Shown one piece after another: positions 3,395 through 61,382 of a DNA stretch of 64,000 nt. The DNA comes from Saprospiraceae bacterium (GTDB lineage: Bacteria; Bacteroidota; Bacteroidia; Chitinophagales; Saprospiraceae): assembly GCA_047626155.1 (NCBI GenBank), contig JBLHRR010000013.1, forward strand, positions 270-64,269. The letters are read 5' to 3'. Below the pieces are notes generated by a model. The model was not told the origin of the DNA and searched no databases. It saw nothing but the letters and a program-made list of their open reading frames with translations. Position numbers and translations under genes: made by a program. The first letter of the stretch is position 1, and each line of letters begins with the position of its first letter.

Positions 3395-3549
3395 TTAGTT
3401 GGCGATTGAAAATTGAGAATAATTCTAACGCACCAATTTAGTGAAATTAACCGCAACGGCGCAACTAAGGTGCCACGCAAAGCCCTGTAGGCAGGGCTGA
3501 TCAGTTCTAGTTTTAGCGAATGTTGAAGAAAATTATTAATCAAAATTTC

Positions 3550-3606
3550 AATCAAAATCAAAAACCCGAGACGTGGGAATCACGATAGAAGGTTTTGATT
3601 TTGATT
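3550..3606. repeat. AT-rich 16-bp inverted repeat (AATCAAAATCAAAAACC / GGTTTTGATTTTGATT) enclosing a small CGTG..CACG hairpin; terminator-like
   Basis: Complementarity read directly. It lies just downstream of the stop of the minus-strand gene ending at 3632. The loop contains GTGGGAAT. Confidence 0.5.
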
Positions 3607-3631
3607 CACATTTTAATTTTGATTTAATCAC

Positions 3632-4552: not shown

Positions 4553-4880
4553 CTTAAGTACGTTTAGATTATGGACAGAATTTGACCTTTTAATAAACGG
4601 AATGGGTGGGTGGAAATTGTGCGTTTTTTTTATGATGGGATTCATGCGTTCCGTATTTCATTCTAGATAACCACAAAGACCGCGAAGAGCACGAAGTTTT
4701 CATAAAGTATTAAATGAAATGCTTTAGCATTTTCATACTTATCTTCTTTGTGCAACTTTGTATTACAAGTCTAAGGTTTTGCTAAAAGCTTGTTCCGACC
4801 TTGTGGAAGGAAACAAAGGTTCAGATAAAATCACAGTGGCCCGCATCTTGGGTTTTGATTTCAATTTTTATTTTCAGCGG

Positions 4881-9766: not shown

Positions 9767-9814
9767 GCAAAGCTATTTCGTACATTTTTCTATATCAGTA
9801 AAATGTATTTAAAA

Positions 9815-9854
9815 AATCCCGGATGATTGATTTACAATCGTTCGGGATTTTTTC
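9815..9854 (+). terminator. intrinsic terminator after the M43 peptidase gene
   Basis: AATCCCG (9815-9821) pairs with CGGGATT (9843-9849). There is an inner GATTG/CAATC stem, an A-run upstream and a T-run downstream. Confidence 0.7.
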
Positions 9855-12216: not shown

Positions 12217-12278
12217 AAACGATTACGTTTGTAAACTACCAATTTCAGCGTAGTTACTTTCTTGAAATTATAAAAAAA

Positions 12279-12312
12279 AGGGTCGAAGCTTATTTAGCTT
12301 CGGCCCTTTTTT
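12279..12312. terminator. bidirectional intrinsic terminator between convergent sucC and the galactose-oxidase-like gene
   Basis: AGGGTCGAAGC (12279-12289) pairs with GCTTCGGCCCT (12297-12307) with one G.T. It has an A-run upstream and a T-run downstream. Confidence 0.8.
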
Positions 12313-16211: not shown

Positions 16212-16421
16212 AATGTTAGGTTTTGAACGGAAAGATAAAATAGAACTGGTCAGTATAAAGCAATAGATAGTTGACGAAGGCAACGAGAGAATAAAGAGTC
16301 AGAATAAGGTAAGGTTGGATATGTGTGTATTACGAGAAATAGTATCAAGGGTGAATTTCTAGCAAGGTTATTCACTCTAGTAAAGATAAATGAATTGTCA
16401 GAATTTTTTAGTGTAGACAAA

Positions 16422-16460
16422 TAAAAAGCCCGAATTCGCATGACAAATTCGGGCTTTTTA
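16422..16460 (-). terminator. intrinsic (bidirectional-type) terminator downstream of the peroxidase-like gene
   Basis: AGCCCGAATT (16427-16436) pairs with AATTCGGGCT (16446-16455), flanked by an A-run and a T-run. Confidence 0.75.
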
Positions 16461-16475
16461 TTCAAAAATGATTTT

Positions 16476-18298: not shown

Positions 18299-18349
18299 AG
18301 ATTTAACATACTGTAAAACAAAAATGGAGTTTCAAAGAAAGCTGCTAAA

Positions 18350-18472
18350 TAACAATAAAAAATTAACTTATAACAGTTCAAGCTTTTAGATAAAGCTAAA
18401 CGACTGCAGGGAGAGTGATTTAGCTAAGAGCTTGAGCGTAAACTGTTATAAATTATTTTTTGTGTAATATTA
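18350..18472 (+). repeat. family-1 long-hairpin element, divergent copy (different stems, same loop and flanks)
   Basis: The 5' flank is AACAATAAAAAATTAA. The outer stem TTATAACAGTT (18368-18378) pairs with AACTGTTATAA (18441-18451). The loop is AAACGACTGCAGGGAGAG and the 3' flank is AATTATTTTTTGTGTAATAT. Confidence 0.8.
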
Positions 18473-18837
18473 AAGATCAATAAAAAACCTAAGGATATGG
18501 CATATCCCCTTCAAAGATCGAAGATCGCAGGGAGATATGTCCTATCAGAGGAGGAACAATTCGGAATGCGTTCGGTGTGATTGGTTGTTGTATTTGAGCT
18601 GCCGCTATAAACGTGCAGTCAGTGTTGAACTGTCATACTGAGTGAACGCAGGCAGTCAAACAAGCAAAGACCAACTCCTATTCATCCCGAGCAAGGTACG
18701 AGTCGAATTCTATGATACTTGAAATCTACCTCCAAACTCAGATACCGTTTCTCAAATACCGCGCTGGAACAGTCTCCAACGAATTTCGTAACTATTACTA
18801 AAAAGCTTACCTTCGGCCAATAAATTCTTAGAACACA

Positions 18838-29849: not shown

Positions 29850-29926
29850 GCGAAAAAAGACTCAAATATAAAAGGCCACGGAAAATCAGAAAGTATAAAA
29901 GCTTTGTGCTTCTTCGTGGCCTTTGT

Positions 29927-30047
29927 ATACAACGAAAAATTAAATCCCGATTTGGAAACGATTATGTAAATCAAAATGACTAAAGGGAGAGTGATTTATA
30001 TAATCGTTTCCACTAAAGAAATCGGGAAATTATTTTTGTGTAATACT
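29927..30047 (+). repeat. family-1 long-hairpin element, canonical copy
   Basis: ACAACGAAAAATTAA-ATCCCGATTT-GGAAACGATTATGTAAATCA-AAATGACTAAAGGGAGAG-TGATTTATATAATCGTTTCC-ACTAAAGAAATCGGG-AAATTATTTTTGTGTAATACT. Confidence 0.9.
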
Positions 30048-30162
30048 TTGTAGTTTTAAAGATGTCTTTTTACCGTTAGAAGGTTCTGCGTGATTATTCG
30101 TATATCATGTGCCCTCATTTTTTCACTTTTTTTCACATTCTCATTCGTTCCTCTCTTCTCTC

Positions 30163-39905: not shown

Positions 39906-40002
39906 AAAACGAAAACTGTTAACAAAAACTTCCCACTAACGCGTTATAGAGAAGTTTTCGTTTTAGTTAAATCACGAAAGTGGGAAGTTTATGTTAACAG
40001 TT
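39906..40002. repeat. family-2 element with inverted GTGGGAAG...GTTAACAG termini in the mraY-murD spacer
   Basis: CTGTTAAC-AA-AAACTTCCCACT (39916-39937) pairs with AGTGGGAAGTTT-AT-GTTAACAG (39979-40000). A competing pair is AAAACGAAAAC (39906-39916) with GTTTTCGTTTT (39954-39964). Confidence 0.75.
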
Positions 40003-40017: not shown

Positions 40018-41337
40018 ATGAAAGCAGTAATCTTAGGTGCTGGAGAAAGTGGAGTAGGAGCGGCATTATTGGCAAAGCAAGAAGGCTACAAAGTCTTCGT
40101 ATCTGATTTTGGAAAAATAAAAGAGAGCTTTAAAAAGGAATTGGAGCAACATCAAATCCCTTTTGAAGAAAACAAACATACAAACGAATTAATCTTTGAT
40201 GGGGATTGCATTATCAAAAGTCCGGGAATACCCGACACGGTAACTATCGTTCAGGAAGCACTGAATCGAAAAATACCAGTCATTTCGGACATTGAATTTG
40301 CAGCAAAATTCTGTAAAGGAAAAATAATCGCCATCACAGGTAGCAATGGGAAGACAACCACGACCAAACTAATTTACCACCTTCTCCACAAGGCTGGCCT
40401 TTCGGTCGGTATTGGCGGAAATGTAGGATTTAGCTTCGCTAGGTTACTCACCCATAAACAGCAAAAGGATTGTTATGTATTGGAGCTCAGTAGCTTCCAA
40501 TTAGACAATTGCTACGATTTTCGACCAGAGATTGCACTCTTGCTCAATATCACTGCCGATCACATGGATCGCTACGATTACAAGATCAGCAATTACGTTG
40601 CATCGAAATTTCGAATTATTCAAAAACAGCAGGATTCCGATCTTTTTATCTACAATGAAGCAGACGAAAATATCAAATCCTACCTAAATAAAAAGCCAGT
40701 TGGGATGAACACCATTCCGGTTAGTGATAAGTTCTTTGAAAATAAAACAATACGTACACGAGAAAATCAGTACACACTGAAAGGCACGAATTTAAAAGGC
40801 CCGCACAACGGATTTAATGCGACTTGTGCTCTACTCGTTGCTGAAAAGATGGGAATTGCTAAAGAAAGTTTACAAGAGAGTTTAACCACTTTCGTAAATG
40901 CGCCACATCGTTTAGAGTTCGTTGCCGAAATTAACGGAGTCGATTATATAAACGATAGCAAAGCGACCAATGTAGACTCTGTTTATTATGGTTTGCTAGC
41001 TATGGAAAAACCCTTGGTTTGGATCGCAGGCGGTATAGACAAAGGAAACGATTACAGTTCCATTTTACCACTAGTCAAAGAAAAGGTAAAGGCCATAGTT
41101 TGTTTAGGAGCCGACAACGAAAAGCTACTAAAAGAATTTTCACCACTAGTACAAATCATAAAGGAAACACAAAGCGTAACAGAAGCTATTGAACTGGCTG
41201 CTGCTTTTGCAGAACCAGGAATGACGGTTTTATTATCTCCCGCTTGTTCTAGCTTTGATCTTTTTGAAAACTATGAAAAGAGAGGAGAGCTATTTAAGGA
41301 GGCCGTGCATAATCGAAAATTGAAAGAGAACGAATAA
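40018..41337 (+). CDS. murD: UDP-N-acetylmuramoylalanine--D-glutamate ligase
   Basis: The ORF track starts at 39991 inside a repeat. The ATG at 40018 gives MKAVILGAGESGVGAALLA, a typical MurD N-terminus. GSNGKTTT is present. Confidence 0.93.
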   Translation: MKAVILGAGESGVGAALLAKQEGYKVFVSDFGKIKESFKKELEQHQIPFEENKHTNELIFDGDCIIKSPGIPDTVTIVQEALNRKIPVISDIEFAAKFCKGKIIAITGSNGKTTTTKLIYHLLHKAGLSVGIGGNVGFSFARLLTHKQQKDCYVLELSSFQLDNCYDFRPEIALLLNITADHMDRYDYKISNYVASKFRIIQKQQDSDLFIYNEADENIKSYLNKKPVGMNTIPVSDKFFENKTIRTRENQYTLKGTNLKGPHNGFNATCALLVAEKMGIAKESLQESLTTFVNAPHRLEFVAEINGVDYINDSKATNVDSVYYGLLAMEKPLVWIAGGIDKGNDYSSILPLVKEKVKAIVCLGADNEKLLKEFSPLVQIIKETQSVTEAIELAAAFAEPGMTVLLSPACSSFDLFENYEKRGELFKEAVHNRKLKENE

Positions 41338-41355
41338 TATTTTTTGTGTAATACT
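41335..41355 (+). repeat. solo copy of the family-1 3'-terminal motif, beginning at the murD stop codon
   Basis: The sequence is TAATATTTTTTGTGTAATACT. Its last 17 nt (41339-41355) are identical to 41465-41481, the 3' end of the adjacent full element. Confidence 0.8.
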
Positions 41356-41356
41356 T

Positions 41357-41481
41357 AGTAACAACGAAAAATTAACTTTCCGATTTGGAAACAATTATGT
41401 AAATCAAAACGACCAAAGGGAGAGTGATTTATATAATTGTTTCCACGAAAGAAATCGGGAAATTATTTTTTGTGTAATACT
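41357..41481 (+). repeat. family-1 long-hairpin element, canonical copy between murD and ftsW
   Basis: Full architecture is present. The inner stem carries the compensatory pair GGAAACAATTAT / ATAATTGTTTCC. The element ends 8 nt before the ftsW ATG. Confidence 0.9.
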
Positions 41482-41489
41482 TAACGTCC

Positions 41490-42623
41490 ATGTCAATAGG
41501 AAATAAAATATACGCAGAGTTACGAGGCGATAGAGCTGTTTGGATGATCCTACTTATGTTGGTCATCTTTTCCTTGTTGACGGTCTATAGCTCAACGGGG
41601 CATATGGCTTTTCAAAAGCAAGGCGGGAATACCGAATTTTACCTTTTGAAGCATTTTTTCTTCATCTGTATCGGTTTGACCCTGACTTACATTTGTTATG
41701 TTATGCATTATACACAGTATATGAAAATCGCACCGATACTGTTGGTTATTTGTATTCCACTGTTGATGTATACCATAGGATTTGGGGTGGAGGTAAATGA
41801 TGCGAGGCGTTGGTTGAGGATACCTTTTATAGGCTTAACCTTTCAGACATCGGATTTTGGAAAACTAGCTCTGATCATTTATGTAGCCCGCGCAATTTCA
41901 GCGAAACAGGATTATATAAAAGATTTTAAATCGGCTTTCTTACCGATCATCGTACCCATACTGATTATTTGTGGATTGATTGCTCCAGCGGATTTATCCT
42001 CAGCGCTTTTACTTTTTGTAACCTGTATCGGAATGATGTTTTTAGGAAGAGTAGCGGTACAATATATATTCCTGTTGCTCCTATTGGGGATTGTAGTTTT
42101 TGCAGGCTTGATTGTAATCGGAGAATTTTTTCCAGATTTTGTAAGAACAGATACCTGGATCGAAAGACTAAGAGCCTTCTTGGAGGAGACAGAACCGGGT
42201 CACCAGATTCTACATTCTAAAATAGCCATTGCCAACGGAGGCATATTCGGAGCAGGCCCAGGAAACAGTGTAATGCGGAATTATCTGCCAGCTCCTTACT
42301 CCGATTTTATCTATGCTATGATATGCGAAGAGTATGGTTTGGTTGGAGGCTTTACGATAATTTGTTTATATGTGTTTTTGTTTTTCCGTTGTGTAAGTAT
42401 TGTTACAAGAGCACCTAAGGCATTCGGAGCCATGTTGGTTATGGGATTGGGGATGTTGATGGTTATACAAGCATTGGCAAATATGGCTGTAACAGTACAG
42501 TTGGTTCCAGTAACCGGATTGACACTGCCACTGGTAAGTATGGGAGGAACCTCAATCGTATTTACCTGTATCTCTTTTGGAATGATACTAAGTGTGAGTC
42601 GATATATTGAAAAGACAAGTTAG
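41490..42623 (+). CDS. ftsW: SEDS-family cell division protein FtsW
   Basis: 377 aa, polytopic. RWLRIPFIGLTFQTSDFGKLALIIY, SDFIYAMICEEYGLVG and PLVSMGGTS are typical FtsW/RodA motifs. The dcw position supports the call. Confidence 0.9.
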   Translation: MSIGNKIYAELRGDRAVWMILLMLVIFSLLTVYSSTGHMAFQKQGGNTEFYLLKHFFFICIGLTLTYICYVMHYTQYMKIAPILLVICIPLLMYTIGFGVEVNDARRWLRIPFIGLTFQTSDFGKLALIIYVARAISAKQDYIKDFKSAFLPIIVPILIICGLIAPADLSSALLLFVTCIGMMFLGRVAVQYIFLLLLLGIVVFAGLIVIGEFFPDFVRTDTWIERLRAFLEETEPGHQILHSKIAIANGGIFGAGPGNSVMRNYLPAPYSDFIYAMICEEYGLVGGFTIICLYVFLFFRCVSIVTRAPKAFGAMLVMGLGMLMVIQALANMAVTVQLVPVTGLTLPLVSMGGTSIVFTCISFGMILSVSRYIEKTS

Positions 42624-42638
42624 GAAGGCCGAACGCGA

Positions 42639-42700
42639 CCCCTAAAGGGGAGACCTAACGCGCGCCCAGAGCTTACCGAGATGTAGCTCCCCTTTAGGGG
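42639..42700. repeat. GC-rich inverted repeat CCCCTAAAGGGGAG / CTCCCCTTTAGGGG after ftsW
   Basis: A 14-bp perfect complement joins 42639-42652 and 42687-42700. Each arm is also self-complementary (CCCC-TAAA-GGGG). Confidence 0.65.
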
Positions 42701-42839
42701 CAGGGGGTAAATGCATGGAAAGTTTTTACTAAAAGAATGTAAAATAATTGAACAGTTAATAGTCAGGAGTTAACGATTAATAGTTGGTAGTCAGTAGTAA
42801 AAAACTAAATTACCGTCTAACCAAATTATTTACTCAATT

Positions 42840-43958
42840 ATGAAATCAGAAAAAAGAAATAGAAAAGTAATAATCAGTGGCGGTGGTACAGGAGGCCATG
42901 TCTTCCCAGCAATCGCGATAGCAGATGCATTGAAGGAGAAAGATCCAACAATAGAAATACGCTTTGTAGGGGCGCAAGGGAAAATAGAAATGGAGAAAGT
43001 TCCAGCGGCAGGTTATCCAATAGATGGACTTTGGATCAGCGGCATACAGCGGAAACTCACTTTAAAAAATTTACTCTTTCCATTCAAGCTGATTAGCAGT
43101 ATGTGGAAAGCACATAAAATAATTGGTCGTTTTCGGCCAGATGTAGCAGTAGGCGTTGGAGGCTATGCGAGTTATCCAACCTTAGCAGTGGCTGCCAGAA
43201 GAGGCATTCCCACATTGATACAAGAGCAGAATTGCTATGCGGGTGTAACCAATAAGATGTTACAAAACAAAGTGTGCACTGTTTGTGTGGCTTATGATAA
43301 AATGGATCGCTACTTTCCAAAAGCAAATATCATCTGGACAGGAAATCCGGTACGGAAAGATATAGCAGAATTGGAAGGGAAGAAAGCAGAAGCATTGGCT
43401 CACTTTGGTTTTAAGTCAGATCGAAAGACCATTGTCATAATAGGCGGATCATTGGGCGCTCGAACTTTGAATGATAGCATGGGAGCTAATGTTGCTTTAC
43501 TGGCAAAACATCCAGAGGTACAGGTTTTGTGGCAAGCTGGAAAGTTGTACATCGAAGAGTTTAAGGACTCAGAGACTGCCCGTTTGGAAAATGTAAGAGT
43601 GCAAGCTTTTATCAAACGGATGGATTTAGCTTATGCGATGGCAGATGTAGTGATAGGAAGGGCAGGGGCTTTAACCATTTCTGAACTGTGCCTGGTCGCA
43701 AAACCAGCCATCTTAGTTCCTTCGCCAAACGTGGCTGAAGACCACCAAACGAAGAATGCAATGGCCTTGGTGGAGAAGGATGCAGCTATTTTAGTCAAAG
43801 ATAAAGATGCCAAAGGGATGATTCAAAACGCAATTGAACTGTTAGCCGATTTTGATAAGATGACTTTATTGTCACAAAATATTAAAACATTGGCCAAACC
43901 TGATGCTGCTGCTCAAATTGCAGACGAAGTGATGAAACTCATTGATAATCAGCCATAA
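42840..43958 (+). CDS. murG: UDP-N-acetylglucosamine--N-acetylmuramyl-(pentapeptide) pyrophosphoryl-undecaprenol GlcNAc transferase
   Basis: 372 aa. GGGTGGHVFPAIAIA, GGSLGA and the C-terminal HQTKNA motif are present. Confidence 0.95.
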   Translation: MKSEKRNRKVIISGGGTGGHVFPAIAIADALKEKDPTIEIRFVGAQGKIEMEKVPAAGYPIDGLWISGIQRKLTLKNLLFPFKLISSMWKAHKIIGRFRPDVAVGVGGYASYPTLAVAARRGIPTLIQEQNCYAGVTNKMLQNKVCTVCVAYDKMDRYFPKANIIWTGNPVRKDIAELEGKKAEALAHFGFKSDRKTIVIIGGSLGARTLNDSMGANVALLAKHPEVQVLWQAGKLYIEEFKDSETARLENVRVQAFIKRMDLAYAMADVVIGRAGALTISELCLVAKPAILVPSPNVAEDHQTKNAMALVEKDAAILVKDKDAKGMIQNAIELLADFDKMTLLSQNIKTLAKPDAAAQIADEVMKLIDNQP

Positions 43959-44120
43959 AGAGCATTATTATATTAAAATAAATTACAAATTACAAAACAA
44001 ATGAATAAATATTTTTTTATATAATAATTACGGCACATACTTTGATATTTAAGCCTGATGTACAGTGCTTTATAAAGATAAAAAGATACAATTAATAAAA
44101 ACTGTAATGTTAATAGACCT

Positions 44121-45512
44121 GTGATAAAAAAGCGCTTAGAACTCGAAGACCTAAAAACGATCTATTTGATCGGTATCGGTGGCATCGGAATGAGTGCATT
44201 GGCCAGATATTTTTTACAACGCGGTGCGGCCGTGTATGGCTACGATAAAACCGCAACAGTGCTTACCAGAAAGCTGGAAGCTGAAGGGATGACAATCCAC
44301 TACGACGAAGATGTAGCACGAATACCAAAAGGAGTTGATCTGGTAATTTTTACACCAGCCATTCCAGCGAAACATCGGGAATTACAGTACTTCCGTACCA
44401 ATGATTTTCCGATTATGAAACGCGCAGAGGTATTGGGATTGATCAGTCGAAACTTGAAAACCATAGCGGTTGCAGGGACACATGGAAAGACAACGACAAG
44501 CGCTATTGTGAGCCATATCATTCGAACGGGCGGGATTGATAGTACTGCTTTTTTAGGCGGCATAGCTCAGAATCTTGGCTCGAATTACGTTGGTGGAAAG
44601 AGCAACTGGATGGTGGTAGAAGCGGACGAGTTTGATCGTTCTTTTTTACACCTGAGTCCAGATTTAGCGATTATCCTTTCTATGGATCCAGATCATCTGG
44701 ATATATATGGAGCGCATGACGAGCTGAAGAAAACCTTCGCCGAATTTGCGGGACAGTTGAAAGAAGGCGGGCAGTTGTTTGTACAAGCCGACTTGCCTTT
44801 AGAGATGCCAGGACAAATGAGTTTTGGTTTAGAAAAGGGAGATTATTTTGTATATAATGAGCGGGTTGAAAATGGCTGTGCTGTTTTTGATTTCAAAAGT
44901 CCTAAAGGCAGTATTGATAACATTGTTTTTACAATGCCCGGCCGACACAATATAACAAACGCCTGTGCTGCCATTGCCGTAGCGCAGGAACTGAATATTT
45001 CGGCGAAAGCCATCAAAGACGCATTGGCTTCATTCAAAGGAATAAAGCGACGTTTTGAAAGAGTATATAGTGATGAACAAGTGGCGTATGTTGATGACTA
45101 CGCCCATCATCCAACAGAGTTAAAAGCAGCGATAGATGCGACCCGACAATTGTTTCCCGGAAGGAAAATAACAGGAATCTTTCAACCACATCTGTTTTCC
45201 AGAACCCGTGATTTTGTAAAGGGTTTCGCTGAAGCACTGGATGGTCTGGATGAATGTATACTAATGGATATCTACCCGGCAAGAGAAGAGCCGATACCGG
45301 GAGTTAGTTCTGCAATTATTTATAATAAGATGAATCTTGCAAGCCGGACACTAGTTAATAAAAAGACGCTGATGGAAGAGCTGGCTGAAAAAGAAATTGA
45401 TGTATTACTTACTTTAGGAGCTGGAGATATTGACAGGTTTGTGCAACCCATAAAAAGCTGGTTGGAACAAAGAGTTGGTTGGAACAAAGAAGACCATGAA
45501 AAAGAAGAATAA
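44121..45512 (+). CDS. murC: UDP-N-acetylmuramate--L-alanine ligase
   Basis: 463 aa (GTG start). Motifs: IGIGGIGMSALA, GTHGKTTT and DDYAHHPTE. Confidence 0.95.
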   Translation: MIKKRLELEDLKTIYLIGIGGIGMSALARYFLQRGAAVYGYDKTATVLTRKLEAEGMTIHYDEDVARIPKGVDLVIFTPAIPAKHRELQYFRTNDFPIMKRAEVLGLISRNLKTIAVAGTHGKTTTSAIVSHIIRTGGIDSTAFLGGIAQNLGSNYVGGKSNWMVVEADEFDRSFLHLSPDLAIILSMDPDHLDIYGAHDELKKTFAEFAGQLKEGGQLFVQADLPLEMPGQMSFGLEKGDYFVYNERVENGCAVFDFKSPKGSIDNIVFTMPGRHNITNACAAIAVAQELNISAKAIKDALASFKGIKRRFERVYSDEQVAYVDDYAHHPTELKAAIDATRQLFPGRKITGIFQPHLFSRTRDFVKGFAEALDGLDECILMDIYPAREEPIPGVSSAIIYNKMNLASRTLVNKKTLMEELAEKEIDVLLTLGAGDIDRFVQPIKSWLEQRVGWNKEDHEKEE

Positions 45513-46284
45513 AAAAAAGAACGCAACCTTTGTCCTGAATTTGTTCTGGTTGGTTTTGTTTTTCGTAGCAGCCATTTTAATAATTTGGTCCATCGAAAAG
45601 AAACAAGCCAAAATAACAGGAGAGTTGACGATAATAGTAGAAGACTTACCAGAAGGTAACAATCTACTTACAAAAGAGGATGTTTTGGAACGCTTACAGA
45701 AAAGTTTTGTTATAGGCTTGTCTGGACAGCCGGTAGGAGCGCTGGATGTAAAGCAGATAGAAGCAGTATTGGAAGAAGATCCTTTTGTGAAAGCTGCGGA
45801 AGTTTACATCAATGCAAAAAACAAAGTTCACATTGAATTGAAGCAAAGAGTACCATTGTTGCGAGTGATTGATGCAGAAGGAGAGAATTATTACTTAGAT
45901 AAAGCAGGCAACAAGATGCCGCTATCCAAACATTTTACCGCAAAGGTTTTAGTAGCGAATGGAAATATTCCACCGCACATTCCCAACTTTAGGGAAAAAC
46001 CAAAACATGCTTTGCGAGATTTGTTTGAATTGACAAATAGAATTTTAAAAGATGATTTTCTGGAACCATTAGTTGCACAGATTTACCGCGACAAAAAAGG
46101 GAGTTTTATACTGGTTCCAATCGTAGGAAATCAAAACATAGTCTTCGGACCTTATGAATCGGTAGAAGACAAGTTTTTTAGATTAGAGCAGTTTTATTTA
46201 AAAGCTGTACCATACACTGGATGGAATAAATACAAAACGATTAATCTGACATTCAAAAATCAGGTAGTTTGCGAAAAACGATAG
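45496..46284 (+). CDS. ftsQ: FtsQ-like cell division protein
   Basis: The ORF track starts at 45475. The ATG at 45496 gives a basic N-terminus followed by a TM helix (FVLNLFWLVLFFVAAILIIW) and a POTRA-like region. It overlaps the end of murC. Confidence 0.75.
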   Translation: MKKKNKKKNATFVLNLFWLVLFFVAAILIIWSIEKKQAKITGELTIIVEDLPEGNNLLTKEDVLERLQKSFVIGLSGQPVGALDVKQIEAVLEEDPFVKAAEVYINAKNKVHIELKQRVPLLRVIDAEGENYYLDKAGNKMPLSKHFTAKVLVANGNIPPHIPNFREKPKHALRDLFELTNRILKDDFLEPLVAQIYRDKKGSFILVPIVGNQNIVFGPYESVEDKFFRLEQFYLKAVPYTGWNKYKTINLTFKNQVVCEKR

Positions 46285-46331
46285 GATGATCCCATTTTCC
46301 GATTTTTTAAGCACTGCCAAAAAATTATACT

Positions 46332-47690
46332 ATGATGGATAACTTTAGTACAACACAAAAAAACCAAGTAGTTGTTGCCCTGGATATTGGGACTACAAAG
46401 GTATGTGCTATCGCGGGTCGTAAAGACGAACATGGAAAAATTGAAATCCTCGGTATTGGCAAAGTAGAATCTTCTGGTGTTTCCAGAGGCGTTGTTTCCA
46501 ATATTGAAAAGACAGTGAAAGCAATCAAAGAAGCGGTTGCTTCTGCTGAGCGCAACTCTGGTCAGGAAATCAAAATCGTGCATGTTGGAATTGCAGGTCA
46601 GCATATCAAAACTTTGCAACACCGCGGTATCCTTACCCGTGACAACGATTTGCAGGAAATTGATCAATCTGATATCGATCGTTTAATCAGTGACATGTAC
46701 AAATTGGTTTTACCTCCAGGAGATAAAATCTTACACGTTATTCCACAAGAATATACTGTTGACAACGAGCAGGGAATCACCGATCCAATTGGGATGTCTG
46801 GTGTTCGCCTCGAAGCCAACTTCCACATTATAACTGGTCAGATCACAGCCTCTAATAATATCTACCGTTGTATCGAACGCGTAGGTTTACGTGTGGCAGA
46901 TATGACTTTGGAGCCAATTGCTTCTGCTGCCTCAGTATTGAGTCAGGAAGAAAAAGAAGCAGGGGTTGCATTGGTAGATATCGGAGGCGGTACTACAGAT
47001 ATTACCATTTTCCAAGACGGCATCATTCGGCACACCGCTGTGATTCCTTTTGGAGGAGACGTTATTACAAAAGATATCAAGGAAGGCTGTACTGTAATGG
47101 AGCAACAGGCTGAAAAGCTGAAAGTGAAATTTGGTTCTGCATTATCTGAAGAGGTTTTTGAAAACAGAGTGATTACAATTCCTGGTTTGAAAGGCCATGA
47201 GCCAAAGGAAATTTCTGAAAAGAATCTGGCTTTGATTATTCAGGCAAGAGTAGAGGAAATTTTGGACTATGTGGTTTGGGAAATCCGTCGCTCTGGTTAT
47301 GATACCAAGTTGATTGGAGGCCTAGTTTTGACAGGTGGAGGATCATTGTTAGAACATATTGAAAAGTTGACAGCTTACCACACTGGTTTTAGTACACGTA
47401 TCGGAATGCCTATCGAGCACCTGGCACATGGCTACAATGAAAAAGTATGCAGCCCTATTTATGCAACCGCGATTGGCTTGCTCATCAATGGCATTAAGAG
47501 CGTAGAAAGTGGAAAGGTGGTTTACAAAAAAGTAGAAGTGGAGGAACCTGTAACTGTTGATGCCATTATTGAAGAGGAAGAAAAAGCAGCAGCAGAAGCT
47601 ATTCAACTTGCAGAAGATTCCAAATGGTATGAAAAGCTTTTTAATAAAACAAAAGAGTGGTTCGAGGCTGAGAGGGATACGGAATTTTAA
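46332..47690 (+). CDS. ftsA: cell division protein FtsA
   Basis: 452 aa with an actin-like ATPase fold (VVALDIGTTKVCAI, VDIGGGTTDI, LTGGGS) and a C-terminal amphipathic helix (WYEKLFNKTKEWF). Confidence 0.95.
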   Translation: MMDNFSTTQKNQVVVALDIGTTKVCAIAGRKDEHGKIEILGIGKVESSGVSRGVVSNIEKTVKAIKEAVASAERNSGQEIKIVHVGIAGQHIKTLQHRGILTRDNDLQEIDQSDIDRLISDMYKLVLPPGDKILHVIPQEYTVDNEQGITDPIGMSGVRLEANFHIITGQITASNNIYRCIERVGLRVADMTLEPIASAASVLSQEEKEAGVALVDIGGGTTDITIFQDGIIRHTAVIPFGGDVITKDIKEGCTVMEQQAEKLKVKFGSALSEEVFENRVITIPGLKGHEPKEISEKNLALIIQARVEEILDYVVWEIRRSGYDTKLIGGLVLTGGGSLLEHIEKLTAYHTGFSTRIGMPIEHLAHGYNEKVCSPIYATAIGLLINGIKSVESGKVVYKKVEVEEPVTVDAIIEEEEKAAAEAIQLAEDSKWYEKLFNKTKEWFEAERDTEF

Positions 47691-47732
47691 TATGGTAATA
47701 CTGTTACATAAAAGGATAAAAAAGCTGAGCTA

Positions 47733-47856
47733 AGTAACAACGAAAAATTAAATCCCGATTTGGAAACAATTATATAAATCAAAACGATCATAGGGAGAGT
47801 GGTTTACATAATTGTTTCCACGAAAAAAGGCGGGAAATTATTTTTGGTGTAATACT
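47733..47856 (+). repeat. family-1 long-hairpin element, canonical copy between ftsA and ftsZ
   Basis: Full architecture is present. The loop is AAAACGATCATAGGGAGAG. It shares the A:T compensatory inner-stem variant with the murD-ftsW copy. Confidence 0.9.
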
Positions 47857-47933
47857 AAATATCAGCAACTGAAATTATTAAGACTTAAGGATCGATTTAT
47901 TTAAACTTATTTAAACTCAAAAAAAGAAATATC

Positions 47934-49361
47934 ATGTTCGATATACCCAAAGAAGAAGGATCAATAATCAAGGTCATCGGTGTAGGTGGCGGTGGTAGCA
48001 ATGCGGTCTCTAACATGTTCCGTCAAGGAATCGTTGGTGTAGACTTCGCGATTTGTAACACAGATAACCAAGCGATGGACTTAAGTCCAGTACCTACAAA
48101 AATTTGTTTAGGTCCTGAATTGACGGAAGGCCGTGGAGCGGGTTCCCGCCCGACGATCGGAAAGCAAGCTTGTCAGGAATCCATAGAGGAAGTAAAAGTA
48201 TTTTTAGCTAATAATACCAAGATGTTATTCGTCACTGCAGGTATGGGCGGTGGTACCGGAACAGGTGCTGCACCAATTATTGCCAAAGCTGCACAGGAGA
48301 TGGACATCCTTACAATTGGTATTGTGACGTTACCATTTACTTTTGAAGGAAGAAAAAGAACGACTCAAGGAGTTGAAGGATTGGAAGAGCTAAAAGCAAA
48401 TGTAGATTCATTGATTGTTATTTCTAATGATAAATTGCGCCAGATTCATGGTAACTTATCACTAGGGGAGGCCTTCTGCGAAGCGGATAGTGTATTGACG
48501 ACTGCGGCCAAAGGTATTGCAGAAATCATCACAGTAGCCGGTTATGTAAACGTGGATTTCGAAGATGTAAACACTGTTATGCGTAGCTCAGGAGTTGCCA
48601 TTATGGGAACCTCACAAGCAGAAGGAGAAGATAGAGCGAAGCGTGCCGTTGATGAAGCATTGAACTCTCCATTATTGGAAGACAACCACATCAAAGGAGC
48701 ACAGCACATTCTGTTGAATATCACTTCTGGTACCAAGGAAGTAACAATGGATGAAGTTTTTGAGATTACAGAATTCGTTCAGGAGGAAGCGGGTTATGGA
48801 ACCAACTTAATCTGGGGTAACTGCTTTGATGAGACCTTGGGTGATGCCATTTCCGTAACGGTTATTGCTACTGGATTTGAGCATATAGAAAAGGATCAGG
48901 AAGCACCAGAAACAGAGAAGGTTCGTATTTCACTGGATGAAGACGATAGGAATAAACCAGGTTTCTACGAAGTTGGACACAATGATGGAGATAAAGCGAA
49001 GACTGTCGAATTCGATGATGTTCGTGACTCTCTAACAAGATACAACCGAACTGGATACTCTTACGAAGAACCTTATTTGAAAAGCGAGGAAAAGAAGCAG
49101 TTGGAAATGGAGCGTCGCTTATTGCAGGAGGAAGAAGCTTTGCGAAGAGAGAAAGAACGCTTACGTAATGCAAGAGTGAAGCTAAGCAACCCAAACACGG
49201 TAAGTGATTTGGAAAACCAACCGGCCTACCTTCGTAGAAGAGTAAATTTGGACGACAATCCAAAATCAGAAGAACTCAATCGTTCTCGTTGGACCATCAG
49301 CGATGATGAAGAACCAGAATTAAAATCGGACAATAGTTATCTGCATGATAATGTAGACTAG
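47934..49361 (+). CDS. ftsZ: cell division GTPase FtsZ
   Basis: 475 aa. GVGGGGSNAV and the tubulin signature GGGTGTGAAP are present, with a C-terminal QPAYLRRRV peptide followed by a ...SYLHDNVD tail. Confidence 0.97.
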   Translation: MFDIPKEEGSIIKVIGVGGGGSNAVSNMFRQGIVGVDFAICNTDNQAMDLSPVPTKICLGPELTEGRGAGSRPTIGKQACQESIEEVKVFLANNTKMLFVTAGMGGGTGTGAAPIIAKAAQEMDILTIGIVTLPFTFEGRKRTTQGVEGLEELKANVDSLIVISNDKLRQIHGNLSLGEAFCEADSVLTTAAKGIAEIITVAGYVNVDFEDVNTVMRSSGVAIMGTSQAEGEDRAKRAVDEALNSPLLEDNHIKGAQHILLNITSGTKEVTMDEVFEITEFVQEEAGYGTNLIWGNCFDETLGDAISVTVIATGFEHIEKDQEAPETEKVRISLDEDDRNKPGFYEVGHNDGDKAKTVEFDDVRDSLTRYNRTGYSYEEPYLKSEEKKQLEMERRLLQEEEALRREKERLRNARVKLSNPNTVSDLENQPAYLRRRVNLDDNPKSEELNRSRWTISDDEEPELKSDNSYLHDNVD

Positions 49362-49472: not shown

Positions 49473-49509
49473 CAGGGCATTTCGATTAGTTCGGGATGCC
49501 TTGTTTTTT
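49473..49509 (+). terminator. intrinsic terminator ending the dcw cluster
   Basis: A 13-bp stem (with G.T pairs) joins 49473-49485 and 49491-49503, followed by TTTTTT. Confidence 0.65.
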
Positions 49510-50047
49510 ATTATATATTAAATGTTGCGCGATTGCAATATTTTTTAGCTAAATATTTGTCAAATAAAGATATTTAACTAATTTTATGTCAACAACTCCA
49601 ACCAACTCAAATCAAAAGGCTTTCCAAAAGCCGAGAATTACCTTGTTTTTGAAATTAAGCTTTGTGCTTAACTCTAAATTTTTAACTGATTAAATATAAA
49701 AGCCTATTTAGGTTTGTGCACTAAGATGGAATGTCTTGTGGATGTATTGTTATGTGTGTGACAGATCGTTTTGAAAGGTTTACTAAAATTGATATTATTC
49801 TTCGCCGTTTACAGCGGTAACAACTATTTTTTATAAATAGAACTGTTTCTATTCTTTTTTAGATTCCAGTTTTGAAAAACATCGCGGGTTAGTGATTATG
49901 TCAGGGAGTGTTTTATTGCACTCGCTTGGGTTAAATTGCTTTGTTCTTTTCCATCTTTGGTTATGGGAAAGTATTGTTGTGTGTAGATGGAGAATTATTG
50001 TTTGAACATTAACATTACTACTTTATAACCTTTTTAAAACTGTGATT

Positions 50048-51829
50048 ATGAAAAAAAGATTTACAAAATTATTAACAGTAATAGCCTTATTTCTACTGCC
50101 CTTTTCTTTGGTAGAGATACAGGCACAAGGAGAAACATGTGTAACAGCTTTGGCTGTAGCTGCGGGTCCTCATACCGCTGATGGCGCAGCATCTGGAAGC
50201 GGAGCATCTAATACTTGCTATTCAAGTGCTACCCATGCGGATTGGTATTCTTATACTGCACCGGCTGATGGTTTTGTTGACATTAGTGCCTGCCTGGGCG
50301 GAGTGGATACAAGACTTAGCGTATATGATGCTTGTGGGGGAACCTGTATTGCAAGTGATGATGACACCTGTCCATTTGCACCAGATGGTTCTGGAAGCTC
50401 TTATGCCTCGGAAGTGACTGGTATCGAAATGTGTAGTGGCAATACCATTTATATTGAATGGGATGACAGGTGGTCAACAAGCGGTTTTAACTGGAATTTG
50501 ACTTTTACTCCAGGTTCTCCTGCTGGTTGTGGTACTCCTACAGTGACTTGTGGTGCAACCACGAATGAGACATATTGTTATACTACCAACGATGCGACAA
50601 CTTGGGGCTATGTTTCCTCAGATGGGACTAGTCCTTTGACGCTTTCCTTTAATTTCGGTGGAATAGAATCCTGTTGTGATAATATAACGATCTATGATGG
50701 TTCCGATAATACCGGTACTGTATTATTTTCAGGAGCCAATGGAGGTGATTTGACAGGCGTAACGGCTACCTCTACCGGTTCTAATATTTTTATGGAAGTC
50801 GATTCAGATAGCTCAATAGATTGTGCTAGTGGTTCCGGTTGTTGTACTACGAGCTGGGATTGGGATGTGGATTGTACAGTTCCTGAGAATGATCTTTGTG
50901 CAAATGCAATGCTTATTTCATCTGGTTCCAGTACAGGAGGGACAACAGTTTATGCAACAACTACTGGTGAGCCACCAACATGCGTTACCACCGTTACTGC
51001 TGGAGGTGTCTGGTATGTTTATAACTCTATTACTGCAGAGACCGTAACAGTAGACATATGTGGGGCGCCTTATGATTCAAAAATAGGAGTATATTCAGGA
51101 TCTTGTGGTGGTTTTACCTGTGTAATTGGAGAGGATGATGATTTTTCAATTTGTGGCACCGATGACCCTTCTGTAGAGTTTGTTACAACCGCGAGTTTTG
51201 CGGCTGAGGACTACTACATATATGTAAATGGTTTTGGAGGAGGTCAGGGTACTTTTGTAATAACAATTGCAGGAGTGCCTCTCCCAGTAGAACTCATTTC
51301 TTTCGAAGGCCAAACCATTGAGAAAGAAAACAAACTTACTTGGGTCACCGCTTCCGAGGAAAACACCGAATGGCACATCATTGAGCGATCTATCGATGGC
51401 CAAAAAGACTGGACAGAAATCGGAAGAACTCGTGCGGCAGGTACGACAGCTGAACTTCAGCGATATGAAATGATGGACAGAGCTCCTTTGGCTCAAGCTT
51501 ACTATCGGGTGAAGTCTGTTGATTATGACCTTCGTTTTGAGTACTCTAATTTGGTTGAACTACAAAGAGAAGATGCACCTGGTGACATCACGGTATATCC
51601 AAACCCAGTAAGTCAGGAATTAAATGTTGACTTCACTTTAGCGAAAGCACAAGAAGTGAGTATTGATATTTCTGATGTAACGGGTAAGTTGATCTCTGTA
51701 GAAAATTTCGAGGCTTCACGTGGGCTTAACAACCATAACATCAATTTCAGTAACTTGAATAGCGGTGTATACTTTGTGACGATGACCAGCTCCAATGGGA
51801 CGGTTACCAAACGAGTAGTGAAGAACTAA
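50048..51829 (+). CDS. secreted T9SS cargo protein with PPC-like and CUB-like domains
   Basis: The ATG at 50048 gives MKKRFTKLLTVIALFLLPFSLV. Two Cys-rich PPC-like modules are present (DWYSYTAPADGFVDISAC...RLSVYDAC). There is a CUB-like block (CCDNITIYDGSDNTGTVLFSG...SNIFMEVDSDSS) and a C-terminal T9SS sorting domain (VYPNPVSQELNV...GVYFVTMTS). Confidence 0.6.
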   Translation: MKKRFTKLLTVIALFLLPFSLVEIQAQGETCVTALAVAAGPHTADGAASGSGASNTCYSSATHADWYSYTAPADGFVDISACLGGVDTRLSVYDACGGTCIASDDDTCPFAPDGSGSSYASEVTGIEMCSGNTIYIEWDDRWSTSGFNWNLTFTPGSPAGCGTPTVTCGATTNETYCYTTNDATTWGYVSSDGTSPLTLSFNFGGIESCCDNITIYDGSDNTGTVLFSGANGGDLTGVTATSTGSNIFMEVDSDSSIDCASGSGCCTTSWDWDVDCTVPENDLCANAMLISSGSSTGGTTVYATTTGEPPTCVTTVTAGGVWYVYNSITAETVTVDICGAPYDSKIGVYSGSCGGFTCVIGEDDDFSICGTDDPSVEFVTTASFAAEDYYIYVNGFGGGQGTFVITIAGVPLPVELISFEGQTIEKENKLTWVTASEENTEWHIIERSIDGQKDWTEIGRTRAAGTTAELQRYEMMDRAPLAQAYYRVKSVDYDLRFEYSNLVELQREDAPGDITVYPNPVSQELNVDFTLAKAQEVSIDISDVTGKLISVENFEASRGLNNHNINFSNLNSGVYFVTMTSSNGTVTKRVVKN

Positions 51830-51960
51830 TGATTCTTTAATTTGATACTATAAAATCAATTATAAAAAGAGTATCCCGTCAATTAACTTTGGCGGGATAC
51901 TTTTTTTATTGGCTTCAATGTGTAATTTTGATCTTTATTTCAAAATTACAATGACAGCTT

Positions 51961-53220
51961 ATGAATATCCAGAAAATTACTCTACCTCTTTTATTACTTG
52001 TTTTGCTTTTAAGCAGTGCCTGCAAAACCACCAAACTCCTCTCCGATCAATCCATTAGCATCGAAGCCATCAAAAAAGACGTCTACTTCCTTGCCGATGA
52101 CAAACTCGAAGGTCGCGAAATAGGAACCAATGGCGAACTCATCGCAGCAGAGTACATCGTTAAGCGATTCAAAGAAATTGGAGTTGCACCTGTCGGAACC
52201 GACGGGAGCTATTACCAATCCTTCACTGGAAAAGCAGAAGTAGATCCTCACGGAAACAAGGTCGACAGCGAAAATAAGCCACCACGTGGAATTAATGTTA
52301 TCGGTTTCTTAGATAACAGCGCCCCTACAACAATCATCATCGGAGCTCATTATGATCACTTGGGTTATGGTAAATTCGGATCACTTCATGCTGGAGAGCC
52401 GGAAATTCATAACGGAGCGGACGACAATGCCTCTGGAGTTTCGGCTATGTTGCAACTGGCGGAGCATTTGAAAAATCGATACACTGCTAATAACTATTTG
52501 TTAATTGCTTTCTCAGGTGAAGAAAAAGGATTGTGGGGCTCGAACTACTTTTCTAAAAATCCAACCATCGAAAAAAGCACGATGAACTATATGATCAATC
52601 TGGATATGGTGGGACGTTTGAAACCAGAAAAAACCATTGCTATTAATGGGGTAGGGACCTCTCCTTCTTGGGTACCCGTAATTGATAAACTCAAAGTAAA
52701 TGGCCTCAAACCCGTAACGACAGAATCAGGAATTGGCCCTTCTGATCATACTTCCTTTTATTTAATTGATGTCCCAGCTATTGCTTTTTTTACGGGACAG
52801 CATGCTGATTACCACAAACCAACAGATGATGCTGATAAGGTCAATTACCCTGGAATTCAGTCGGTTGTGCAATATGTTGATGCTTTGATTGGGAAATTGA
52901 ATGGCCGTGGAAAATTGACATTCACTAAAACAAAAGACGATTCGATGGGAGGTGACACCCCGCGTTTTACAGTCACCTTAGGTGTTATGCCTGATTATTT
53001 GTTCGGAGACAAAGGAATGCGCATAGATGGTGTTAGAGAAGGCCGCCCAGCTTCTAATGCGAAGATGTTGGCTGGTGATATTGTCATCCAAATGGGAGAG
53101 CACAAAGTGGACGACATGAATGGCTATATGGATGCCTTAAGTAAGTTTAAAAAAGGAGATACGACAGTTGTGAAATTTAAAAGAGGGGAGGAGTTGATGG
53201 AGACAACTGTTAACTTTTAA
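51961..53220 (+). CDS. M28-family aminopeptidase with C-terminal PDZ domain
   Basis: 419 aa with a lipoprotein-like signal (LLSSACK), the M28 metal-site context (GAHYDHLGYG, NGADDNASGVSAML, FSGEEKGLWGS) and a PDZ-like C-terminus (GDIVIQMGEHKVDDMNGYMDAL). Confidence 0.8.
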   Translation: MNIQKITLPLLLLVLLLSSACKTTKLLSDQSISIEAIKKDVYFLADDKLEGREIGTNGELIAAEYIVKRFKEIGVAPVGTDGSYYQSFTGKAEVDPHGNKVDSENKPPRGINVIGFLDNSAPTTIIIGAHYDHLGYGKFGSLHAGEPEIHNGADDNASGVSAMLQLAEHLKNRYTANNYLLIAFSGEEKGLWGSNYFSKNPTIEKSTMNYMINLDMVGRLKPEKTIAINGVGTSPSWVPVIDKLKVNGLKPVTTESGIGPSDHTSFYLIDVPAIAFFTGQHADYHKPTDDADKVNYPGIQSVVQYVDALIGKLNGRGKLTFTKTKDDSMGGDTPRFTVTLGVMPDYLFGDKGMRIDGVREGRPASNAKMLAGDIVIQMGEHKVDDMNGYMDALSKFKKGDTTVVKFKRGEELMETTVNF

Positions 53221-53266: not shown

Positions 53267-53309
53267 AAAAAAGCCCATGATTTTCTTTTTAGGAAATCGT
53301 GGGCTTTTA
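53267..53309. terminator. bidirectional intrinsic terminator between convergent genes
   Basis: AAGCCCATGATTT (53271-53283) pairs with AAATCGTGGGCTT (53294-53306) with one G.T. It is flanked by an A-run and a T-run. Confidence 0.8.
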
Positions 53310-53772: not shown

Positions 53773-54120
53773 AAAGGAAATATGGATTTGATCTTTGACA
53801 AAGAAAACAGTGATTAGGTCAAAGAAGCGTACAGTTATTACACAAAAATTTGTTTGCACAAAGTGTATTAGCGGCAATAAGAAATAAATATCTGGCTTTT
53901 CCAAATTTTAAATTCATCAATTGTGGATATTCTCATTAAAAACCCTTATTTTAGGACAGATCGCATGATTAATACCCATCACCTCGCTTTTTACAAGAAT
54001 CATTACCGTTTTCAAGCTCAAAAGATAAGGAAGAAAGCTCTTGTATTCCTGCACTTGACAAGCAGAGATAAAAAGCTTACTTTTGCGCCGTATTTGAGAG
54101 ATGTTGGGCAATTGTACATC

Positions 54121-54237
54121 AAAAAAAATTAACTTAGATCGCTGCAATCATTTTTTTAATGCAAAACGACCACAGGGAGAGTGCTTTAACTAAATGATTG
54201 AGAGTATAGTGATCTAAATTATTTTTTGTGTCATAAT
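54121..54237 (+). repeat. family-1 long-hairpin element, second divergent copy (different stems, same loop and flanks)
   Basis: The 5' flank is AAAAAAAATTAA. TTAGATC (54134-54140) pairs with GATCTAA (54211-54217), and CAATCATTT (54145-54153) pairs with AAATGATTG (54192-54200). The loop is AAAACGACCACAGGGAGAG and the 3' flank is AATTATTTTTTGTGTCATAAT. Confidence 0.75.
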
Positions 54238-54696
54238 GATATTTCAATAATTTAGAATTGAATTTCTGTTTTTCTCATCACCGATTCACTTACGGACCCC
54301 ATTCTAACAAATTTTTAAGTTTTTACGCTATACTATTTTTAATAAATTAGCGTCTATTTAATCCCATCGAAAAAATCTTCTTAACGGAAGAACTGACTTC
54401 AACACGCTTTTACACACCTATCTGCTTTGGCAGGTAGCTAAAACGAGAATACCTATTAAATCTGAACTTCATACGTATATTCGCTGTTAAATATATTGTA
54501 TGGGCTATCGGATCTAATAGGAAAAGTGACTTAATATTAAAAATAAGCCTTATTAGTAAGTGAGTGATTGTCTATTTATAGTTGGGAGTTATAGCTTTAC
54601 ATAGAATTAGAGGTAACAAATCAGCAAAAAGACCATTATTCAACCTTATGAAAAGACAGATTTCTTTTTACATATAAATTTATAAACTGTTATTGC

Positions 54697-57458: not shown

Positions 57459-57518
57459 TGGAGTGATAAAGAGGGAAAGGGCGTTTAGCTTTTGCTTTCT
57501 TTGTATAGAAAATGAATA

Positions 57519-57561: not shown

Positions 57562-57578
57562 GTTAAATCAAGTTGTAT

Positions 57579-58611: not shown

Positions 58612-58736
58612 AGTAACAACAAAAAATTAACTTCCCGATTTGGAAACGATTATGTAAACCAAAATGACCAAAGGGAGAGTGATTTATATAATCGTTTCCA
58701 TGAAAGAAATCGGGGAATTATTTTTTGTGTAATATT
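58612..58736 (+). repeat. family-1 long-hairpin element, canonical copy
   Basis: Full architecture is present. The element ends 3 nt before the stop codon (58740-58742, minus strand) of the dynamin-like gene. Confidence 0.9.
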
Positions 58737-58739
58737 AAG

Positions 58740-61256: not shown

Positions 61257-61382
61257 AGGTATTACACTAAAAATAATATCCCGATTTTTTTCGTGGAAAC
61301 GATTATGTAAACCACTCTCCCTGTGGTCGTTTTGATTTACATAATCGTTTCCAAATCGGGAAGTTAATTTTTCGTTGTTACT
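61257..61382 (-). repeat. family-1 long-hairpin element, canonical copy in reverse orientation
   Basis: The reverse complement reads AGTAACAACGAAAAATTAACTTCCCGATTTGGAAACGATTATGTAAATCAAAACGACCACAGGGAGAGTGGTTTACATAATCGTTTCCACGAAAAAAATCGGGATATTATTTTTAGTGTAATACCT. Confidence 0.9.

Follow-up and report, generated by a model that had tools for sequence, protein, structure and literature searches.

Tourist-like, PIF/Harbinger and IS5-derived miniature inverted-repeat transposable elements, or MITEs, such as those of Porphyromonas gingivalis (PMC4596501), are small, AT-rich, non-coding sequences with inverted termini, a 3-bp TAA/TTA duplication, a high copy number and an intergenic location. A 3-bp duplication of TWA is the signature of PIF/Harbinger elements and of Tourist-like MITEs, and canonical Harbinger elements, which make 3-bp target-site duplications (TSDs), are related to IS5 (PMC12730594). 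The present work concerns a hairpin element of about 123 bp that recurs in a 64,000-nucleotide stretch of an uncultured Saprospiraceae bacterium (contig JBLHRR010000013.1 of assembly GCA_047626155.1), referred to below as the window. This element shares all of the above features and is in all likelihood a MITE, mobilised in trans with a 3-bp TWA duplication and newly expanded in one Saprospiraceae lineage; by its duplication, it is Tourist/IS5-like. It belongs to an already familiar kind and is unusual only in its conserved, structured hairpin tip. It differs from the described MITEs in this conserved apex and in stems that covary between subfamilies, and no cognate transposase or insertion sequence with the same ends was identified in about 250 kb of the lineage.

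Other described repeats resemble it in part. Nezha elements of cyanobacteria and Correia elements (CREE) of Neisseria are also hairpins over their whole length (105-170 bp), which can carry internal protein-binding or expression signals, and the mobility of Nezha was argued from empty versus filled orthologous sites in sister species (PMC3184786). Neither has any sequence similarity to the Saprospiraceae element; Correia elements have a TA duplication and an IHF site, whereas the duplication is 3 bp here and no IHF consensus was seen on a quick look. The bcr1 repeat of the Bacillus cereus group, of about 155 bp, has short direct-repeat flanks and an RNA structure kept by compensatory changes (PMC3184786), but it belongs to another phylum, has 5-bp flanking repeats, forms a two-hairpin cruciform and is not similar in sequence. 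Correia, ERIC and SPRITE elements are known to affect transcripts (PMC10969869). Interspersed repeats based on terminators (PMC10969869, PMC3049150) share a terminator-hairpin-like base flanked by A/T tracts, but the Saprospiraceae hairpin is about 40 bp long, has an 18-nt structured apex, is not called by a terminator scan and lies inside essential operons. REP/REPIN-RAYT systems, finally, resemble it as very abundant extragenic palindromes with structure-based conservation and a mobilising enzyme encoded elsewhere; they differ in that the Saprospiraceae element is a longer unit with a target duplication and no GTAG/CGTC tag, and a RAYT gene was not seen.

Mobility and copies in the window

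Empty and filled orthologous sites, 3-bp target duplications and terminal inverted repeats together led us to read the element as a MITE. An earlier note on the same DNA had proposed a bidirectional terminator, a REP/BIME-like element or a MITE; these three lines of evidence speak for the last, while the REP/BIME option was not supported, nor was a canonical terminator as the defining property (see below). In a sister species (L021, about 85% DNA identity by blastn), window segment 47728-47857 corresponds to 5 bp and segment 54126-54260 to 0 bp. At the ftsA-ftsZ site, the empty sequence of L021 reads …AAGCTGTTTT-TAA-CATCAGC… (…GCTGTTTT-TAA-CATCAGC…), and the filled sequence of the window reads …AAGCTGAGC-TAA-(GTAACAAC…GTGTAATAC)-TAA-ATATCAGC…, with the element in brackets. 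The reverse situation was also found: two spacers that are empty in the window hold a family member in relatives, the one between murG and murC in L022 and the ftsQ-ftsA one in L032.

In 16 of the 18 full copies, the 3-mers that abut the element outside its 5' G and its 3' C are identical, for a chance expectation of about 0.3 in 18; the copy at 29923 was counted as duplicated after adjustment for a 1-nt indel at its 5' end. The duplicated 3-mers are TAA (×7), TTA (×7), CTA, GTA and TTT, and a target of about the form Y-TWA-R can be reconstructed from them. As no covariation extends to the next bases on either side, outward or inward, the duplication has a length of exactly 3 bp. The ends themselves (in short form GTAACAACGAAAAATT…/…TTTTTTGTGTAATAC) are imperfect terminal inverted repeats of about 20 bp, 5'-GTAACAACGAAAAATTAAC … AATTATTTTTTGTGTAATAC-3', the reverse complement of the 3' end being GTATTACACAAAAAATAATT. 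They pair with each other as helix 1, in which 94% of positions are paired. The element is shorter than about 500 bp, multi-copy and non-coding, with terminal inverted repeats, a duplication of fixed length and presence or absence at orthologous sites, as is characteristic of MITEs.

Solo termini were found beside full copies at window 41333-41354, L101:10038 and L111:10181. Solo termini and nested remnants indicate repeated insertion and decay. The homology of murD to the sister species stops at 41319, ahead of the solo terminus that holds the murD stop codon, and an older copy that suffered an internal deletion may have supplied the last codons and the stop of murD. Another solo 5' terminus, CTAAGTAACAACAAAAAATAAAGAG, was observed at L111:10177-10205, right past the 3' duplication of the copy at L111:10047-10176; such an arrangement suggests that new copies tend to land at TWA sites formed at the edges of older ones.

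Within the window, a search for the three-block pattern AAAAATTAA-N33-50-AGGGAGAGTG-N28-44-ATTATTTTT gave exactly seven copies, of which six are + and one is -, with no match in 100 shuffles. A covariance model (R1), built from a MAFFT alignment of the copies, recovered the same seven and nothing else (including the 3-bp duplications: 18346-18474+, 29923-30051+, 41355-41484+, 47731-47859+, 54112-54240+, 58610-58739+ and 61255-61384-). The earlier note, which had called for such a model, had placed seven copies at these same loci, with coordinates 2-9 nt apart from those of the model, so that its count stands. The layout that it had described was also found, namely an A-rich 5' end, an outer stem, an inner stem of about 20 bp, an apical segment of about 18 nt and a T-rich 3' end. 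By contrast, the "handful" of differences that it saw among the five canonical copies was an underestimate, as these are 85-93% identical (mean 90%) and show about 9-18 differences. All seven copies lie between open reading frames (ORFs), in convergent, divergent and co-directional spacers as had been noted, which would occur by chance with P ~2e-6 given a coding density of 84%; together they account for 1.35% of the window and for 9% of the non-coding DNA in it. The copies and the parts of the reference copy are as follows.

29925..30046, + strand: reference copy, subfamily A; TSD TTT at 29922-24 and 30047-49; 127.7 bits with the covariance model
29935..29952, + strand: reference copy, 5' arm of the outer helices (A-tract and CCCGATTT), pairing with 30019-30037; inverted repeat I21; consensus helices 1-2
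29953..30012, + strand: reference copy, inner helix of 20-21 bp with arms 29953-29973 and 29992-30012; inverted repeat I9; helices 3-4
29974-29991, + strand: reference copy, 18-nt apex (AAATGACTAAAGGGAGAG), interpreted as U·G (in most copies C-G), then tandem G·A/A·G, then 2 bp with a triloop
18349..18470, + strand: subfamily C copy in a divergent spacer; TSD TAA/TAA; 119.4 bits; stem different, termini and apex the same
41358..41480, + strand: canonical copy in the murD/ftsW spacer; TSD TTA/TTA, ending 6 nt before the ftsW ATG; 147.3 bits
41333..41354, + strand: solo 3' terminus AATAATATTTTTTGTGTAATAC, remnant of an older copy, immediately upstream of the full murD/ftsW copy; has 2 mismatches relative to the 3' terminus and takes in the murD stop codon (41335-41337)
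47734..47855, + strand: canonical copy in the ftsA/ftsZ spacer; TSD TAA/TAA; orthologous site of L021 empty
54115..54236, + strand: older subfamily B copy whose ends and TSD are blurred; situated in a sigma-70 gene's leader region; absent from the L021 site
58613..58735, + strand: canonical copy; TSD TAA/TAA; antisense to both neighbours and directly adjoining the stop codon of a dynamin-like GTPase gene on the - strand
61259..61381, - strand: canonical copy; TSD CTA/CTA; 46 nt upstream of a co-oriented WbqC-family gene; 149.9 bits

The insertion that gave the reference copy lies directly past the terminator hairpin belonging to the upstream gene, which encodes an E1 dehydrogenase. The neighbours of the copies form a Bacteroidota gene set, with proteins sorted by the type IX secretion system (T9SS), a DUF4403 protein and the dcw cluster, in the order mraZ-mraW-…-murD-ftsW-murG-murC-ftsQ-ftsA-ftsZ. 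FtsZ of the window is 96%, 93% and 80% identical to that of the nearest GTDB genomes, which are uncultured Saprospiraceae metagenome-assembled genomes (MAGs). Exact matches to this FtsZ come only from metagenome contigs of JGI and Logan.

Hairpin structure, subfamilies and apex

Each copy folds as one long hairpin, of -31 to -44 kcal/mol and with z-scores of -4.1 to -8.4 versus shuffles (-43.2 kcal/mol and -7.9 for the reference copy). In a model-fitted alignment of 17 sequences, 95.6% of stem positions were in standard pairs and 20 of the 42 pairs were changed on both sides, and none of 500 shuffles attained the observed pairing and compensatory changes. Sliding the partner columns reduced pairing to about 38-51%, and an independent MAFFT/RNAalifold analysis of seven copies gave 13 compensatory pairs. 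As far as sequence comparison can tell, the long hairpin is under selection. The family comprises at least five subfamilies, listed here with the identities between them.

Subfamily A: canonical form
Subfamily B: window 54112 and L107:18550
Subfamily C: window 18346
Subfamily D: L022
Subfamily E: L032 and L083
Apex, identity between subfamilies: 82-100%
Termini, identity between subfamilies: 55-100%
Stem arms, identity between subfamilies: 22-60% (40-78% of positions differ)

Subfamily B is a separately propagating form and not a decayed subfamily A, because its copy at L107:18550-18678 keeps intact termini and a perfect TTA/TTA duplication. Successful copies thus inherit the ends, the pairing and the apex, not the sequence of the stem.

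The apex consensus, drawn from 22 sequences, is 5'-(C/U)-G-A-(C/U)-(C/U)-(ACA, GAAA or GACA…)-(G/A)-(G/A)-G-A-(G/A)-3', in which G57, A58 and A67 are invariant (22/22). In place of the flanking C-G pair, three copies have U·G and L040 has U-A; the inner CC/GG pairs are UU/AA in L032, and the terminal loop ACA is replaced by GAAA or GACA in some sequences. Since these positions covary, the probable fold of the apex starts with C-G, continues with tandem sheared G·A/A·G and two further pairs, and ends in a tri- or tetraloop. The earlier note had described an invariant, unpaired loop: the apex is indeed conserved across subfamilies, but its middle positions vary and it is probably not simply unpaired. 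A kink-turn was considered and rejected, the G·A pairs not being adjacent to a 3-nt bulge but forming a symmetric tandem-GA loop. An IHF site was also considered (WATCAANNNNTTR); judged by eye, only its first half matches in subfamily A, and it does not match in the others.

The two strands are not equivalent. On the opposite strand, the tandem G·A positions become C·U/U·C mismatches, so that the G·A pairs are possible only on the + strand. At stem positions, G·U outnumbers A·C by 49 to 6. Of 19 copies, 16 fold more stably as the + strand than as the - strand; the average difference is 4.9 kcal/mol, and DNA parameters point in the same direction. Because the apex, the G·U excess and the folding energies favour the same strand, the functional form would be a single strand of defined polarity, either single-stranded DNA (ssDNA) or RNA. 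Strand-specific recognition of the apex, proposed in the earlier note, is likewise suggested by these asymmetries and by the retention of apex and termini while stems differ.

Spread of the family and effects on assemblies

Outside the window, additional contigs were reached via six small "hypothetical proteins" of the public databases (P0001-P0006) and by extending both ends of the window. The covariance model found 14 copies in about 126 kb of the host organism, i.e., about 1 per 9 kb, and four copies in 20 kb of the MAG GCA_047631915.1. The dcw surroundings of 80 related Saprospiraceae (1.2 Mb) gave only five matches (L022, L032, L083, L037 and L040) with either covariance model; the second model, to which distant members had been added, found no further relatives. 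With about 1 copy per 9 kb against five matches in 1.2 Mb, this is an old, widespread family of low copy number that has burst in the host lineage. The exact three-block pattern had no match in the GTDB representative genomes, and all 12 matches of a looser pattern in JGI metagenome contigs were chance matches according to the covariance model; the source samples are evidently outside those collections. Nothing similar was found in plasmids and phages by blastn, or in viral contigs with the loop pattern.

The element also leaves its mark on public data. Contigs of four other assemblies end inside the ftsA-ftsZ copy, which is how high-copy repeats disrupt assemblies; contigs that end in copies come from several independent metagenome assemblies and are L003, L004, L006 and L008 at their 5' ends and L003 and L113 at their 3' ends. 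Five of the six reading frames of the element are closed, and the single open frame has no start codon. The proteins P0001-P0006 (46-74 aa) are read-through translations of this frame, with read-through loci at L101:10001-10225, L107:10001-10195, L111:10001-10180 and L112:1-210; a look-up of P0006 gave no record. The element thus creates spurious "hypothetical proteins" in public databases, and it has practical weight for binning this Saprospiraceae lineage, whose assemblies break at each copy. The host organism is labelled "Polaribacter sp." or "Flavobacteriales bacterium" at NCBI; these labels are probably wrong, because FtsZ places the organism in Saprospiraceae.

Several other loci were observed in passing. 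Unrelated long-hairpin repeats occupy dcw spacers at window 39914-40002, L021:3489-3623 and L022:4007-4109. The hairpin of the mraY-murD spacer in the window and the GC-rich hairpin that fills the murD-ftsW spacer of L021 have the 13-mer TTCCCACTAACGC in common, and the ftsA-ftsZ spacer of L022 holds another palindrome, GTCTTTGGTCTTTAG…CTAAAGACCAA. The hairpin families in the same dcw spacers differ from species to species. An indel of a secreted-protein gene also separates the window from its close relative L021: where L021 has about 220 bp, the window has 2.5 kb (49509-52018), and this segment encodes a protein of 595 aa (50042-51829) whose C-terminal domain is a T9SS sorting domain. Short AT-rich repeats and inverted repeats (AATCAAAATTTCAATCAAAATCAAAA / TTTTGATTTTGATT…), unrelated to the MITE family, lie at 3538-3627, upstream of the gene 3632-4645.

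Mechanism, alternative readings and significance

From a mechanistic point of view, the element would be moved in trans by a DDE transposase making 3-bp staggered cuts and encoded elsewhere in the genome. An IS5-family or PIF-Harbinger-like enzyme would best fit the TWA target, and an IS30- or IS3-type enzyme is also possible, as both of these types make 3-bp duplications. Besides the ends, propagation would select for the long hairpin of the + strand and for its apex, and independently amplifying subfamilies would keep termini, pairing and apex while their stem sequences were replaced. As subfamilies keep the apex while the stems were replaced, a protein most likely recognises the apex on a folded single strand (ssDNA or transcript), and this protein may be the transposase or a cofactor. 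Inserted copies would be co-transcribed with their neighbours and form very stable stem-loops in untranslated regions and operon spacers, and any effects on mRNA processing, stability or partial termination are probably a side effect.

Several points weigh against the assignment as a trans-mobilised MITE. No transposase gene with the same ends was found in the roughly 250 kb of the host lineage. The earlier note had seen no transposase, integrase or RAYT-like gene in the window, and domain scans agree: no transposase, integrase or HUH domain was detected in the tested ORFs of the window or in the JGI gene calls, a few small ORFs being unscanned. No transposase is encoded in the loci fetched beyond the window, and no isolated pairs of termini 0.7-3 kb apart were found. 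A search for termini in 120 loci, allowing up to 3 mismatches, returned only full copies, the three solo remnants and two chance matches in ftsA. The GTA…TAC termini are unlike the GG/GA ends typical of the IS5 family. Two of the 18 copies have no clean duplication, one being old (54112) and the other lying beside a remnant (L111:10047). Insertion sites were identical in all samples examined of one population, with no sign of ongoing activity. A cut-and-paste transposase acting on double-stranded DNA gives no obvious reason for the conserved apex or the strand asymmetry, and a link between structure and mobilisation is something that we infer. The G·U excess, moreover, is partly inherited from one master copy, and the count of distinct states in subfamily A (14 G·U vs 5 A·C) is only suggestive.

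Among the alternatives, the one that survives best, which we nevertheless consider unlikely, is a cis-acting RNA module recruited by the host: the element would have spread as a MITE and been kept because its + transcript is a protein-bound stem-loop that might attenuate or terminate transcription in both directions, stabilise the mRNA or be processed by RNase III/E, with a tandem-GA apex bound by a host RNA-binding protein. Precedents are bcr1 (PMC3184786) and the Correia, ERIC and SPRITE elements (PMC10969869). The + strand folds better, G·U is tolerated and A·C is rare, and conserved tandem G·A is a typical protein-binding motif of RNA. Antisense copies, however, retain the G·U pairs of the master copy, which are A·C mismatches in the RNA made there. 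The sense bias of the copies is not significant, 12 of 17 being sense to one or both adjacent genes and five antisense to both. GC skew, considered as a guide to replication- versus transcription-strand bias, was uninformative because it follows gene orientation. Moreover, the sister species lacks copies at the same sites, and selection by the host hardly explains an apex kept by separate, still-transposing subfamilies.

The A-tract/hairpin/U-tract layout, which mimics the base of the genome's own bidirectional terminators, would also suit such an RNA module. These terminators are palindromes of 17-21 bp in which an A-tract and a T-tract flank a short GC-rich stem with a small loop, and likely examples of the native type were observed at 63898-63940, 16420-16462, 12274-12312, 9811-9853, 51862-51909, 53269-53308 and 57519-57561. 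The base of the element, AAAAATTAA-CCCGATTT…AAATCGGG-AAATTATTTTT, resembles their layout, and a weak hit of the covariance model was seen at 57510-57572. Intrinsic (rho-independent) terminators have a short GC-rich stem, a loop of 3-8 nt and a T-run within 0-2 nt of the stem. Yet a terminator scan of 41000-48200 called neither of the two elements there. Family members lie inside the essential dcw cluster in three genomes, and efficient termination is therefore unlikely, which also argues against a terminating RNA module.

A second possibility, distinctly less probable than the RNA module, is that the hairpin with its tandem-G·A apex is itself the substrate of mobilisation, through a folded ssDNA or RNA intermediate that still makes a 3-bp duplication, or that the apex docks a dedicated RNA-binding protein. 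We know of no described bacterial transposition pathway that joins a folded single-stranded intermediate with a 3-bp target duplication. If the variant with an RNA-binding protein were true, hundreds of insertions would become a genome-wide post-transcriptional regulon.

Improbable, too, is a mobile promoter cassette, whose T-rich 3' end would act as an outward Bacteroidetes promoter (TTG-N19-TAnnTTTG) driving the downstream gene. Several copies end 5-11 nt ahead of a start codon, and subfamilies B, C and D have a TTG 19 nt upstream of the TA. An exact TAnnTTTG is present at the 3' end of 3 of 16 copies, but the other 13 have TATTTTTTG or TATTTTTA (one extra T, or G changed to A), the full motif (TTG-N17-21-TAnnTTTG) is found in none of the 16, and 7 of 17 copies have no co-oriented downstream gene.

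The least probable of these readings is a REP/REPIN-like or other ssDNA hairpin transposon, in which a single-copy HUH enzyme (RAYT/IS200-type) would read the folded + strand and its apex. It would account for the conservation of structure rather than of stem sequence, for the conserved apex, for the better folding of one defined strand, also with DNA parameters, and for a very high copy number without a nearby transposase, as in REPINs. REP sequences, however, are 20-40-nt palindromes tagged GTAG or CGTC and inserted without target duplication (PMC3733652). HUH insertion makes no such duplication, while a variable 3-bp one flanks 16 of 18 copies here. The ends are GTAAC…/…AATAC with no conserved GTAG/CGTC tetranucleotide, the single GTAG flank (L107:10056) being a duplicated target. 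The element is a single 123-bp unit with inverted termini and not a set of paired 20-40-nt REPs, and neither the window nor the other sequence examined showed a RAYT gene.

Integron attC sites, which are R''-L''/L'-R' boxes (RYYYAAC…GTTRRRY) bounding promoterless cassettes beside an integrase, were rejected, as there is no GTTRRRY box at the 3' end and no integrase, and the genes between copies are housekeeping genes (dcw, rpoD-like, gap). Rfam 15 gave no hit in the whole window at the gathering threshold; with a permissive E-value and one copy as query, only generic hairpins below threshold were returned, the best being Plastid-ccsA-ndhD-2 (38.8 bits, against 51.5 needed). As the earlier note had supposed, the element belongs to no named Rfam family, none reaching threshold.

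In the literature searched, hairpin MITEs from Bacteroidota are little documented. The family described here shows an unusually clean split between a stem whose sequence evolves freely and ends, pairing and a tandem-GA apex that are kept, which makes it a good system in which to ask what a mini-transposon needs beyond its terminal repeats in order to spread. For the host, insertions 5-11 nt upstream of essential genes (e.g., ftsW) and inside the dcw cluster are candidates for altering operon expression.

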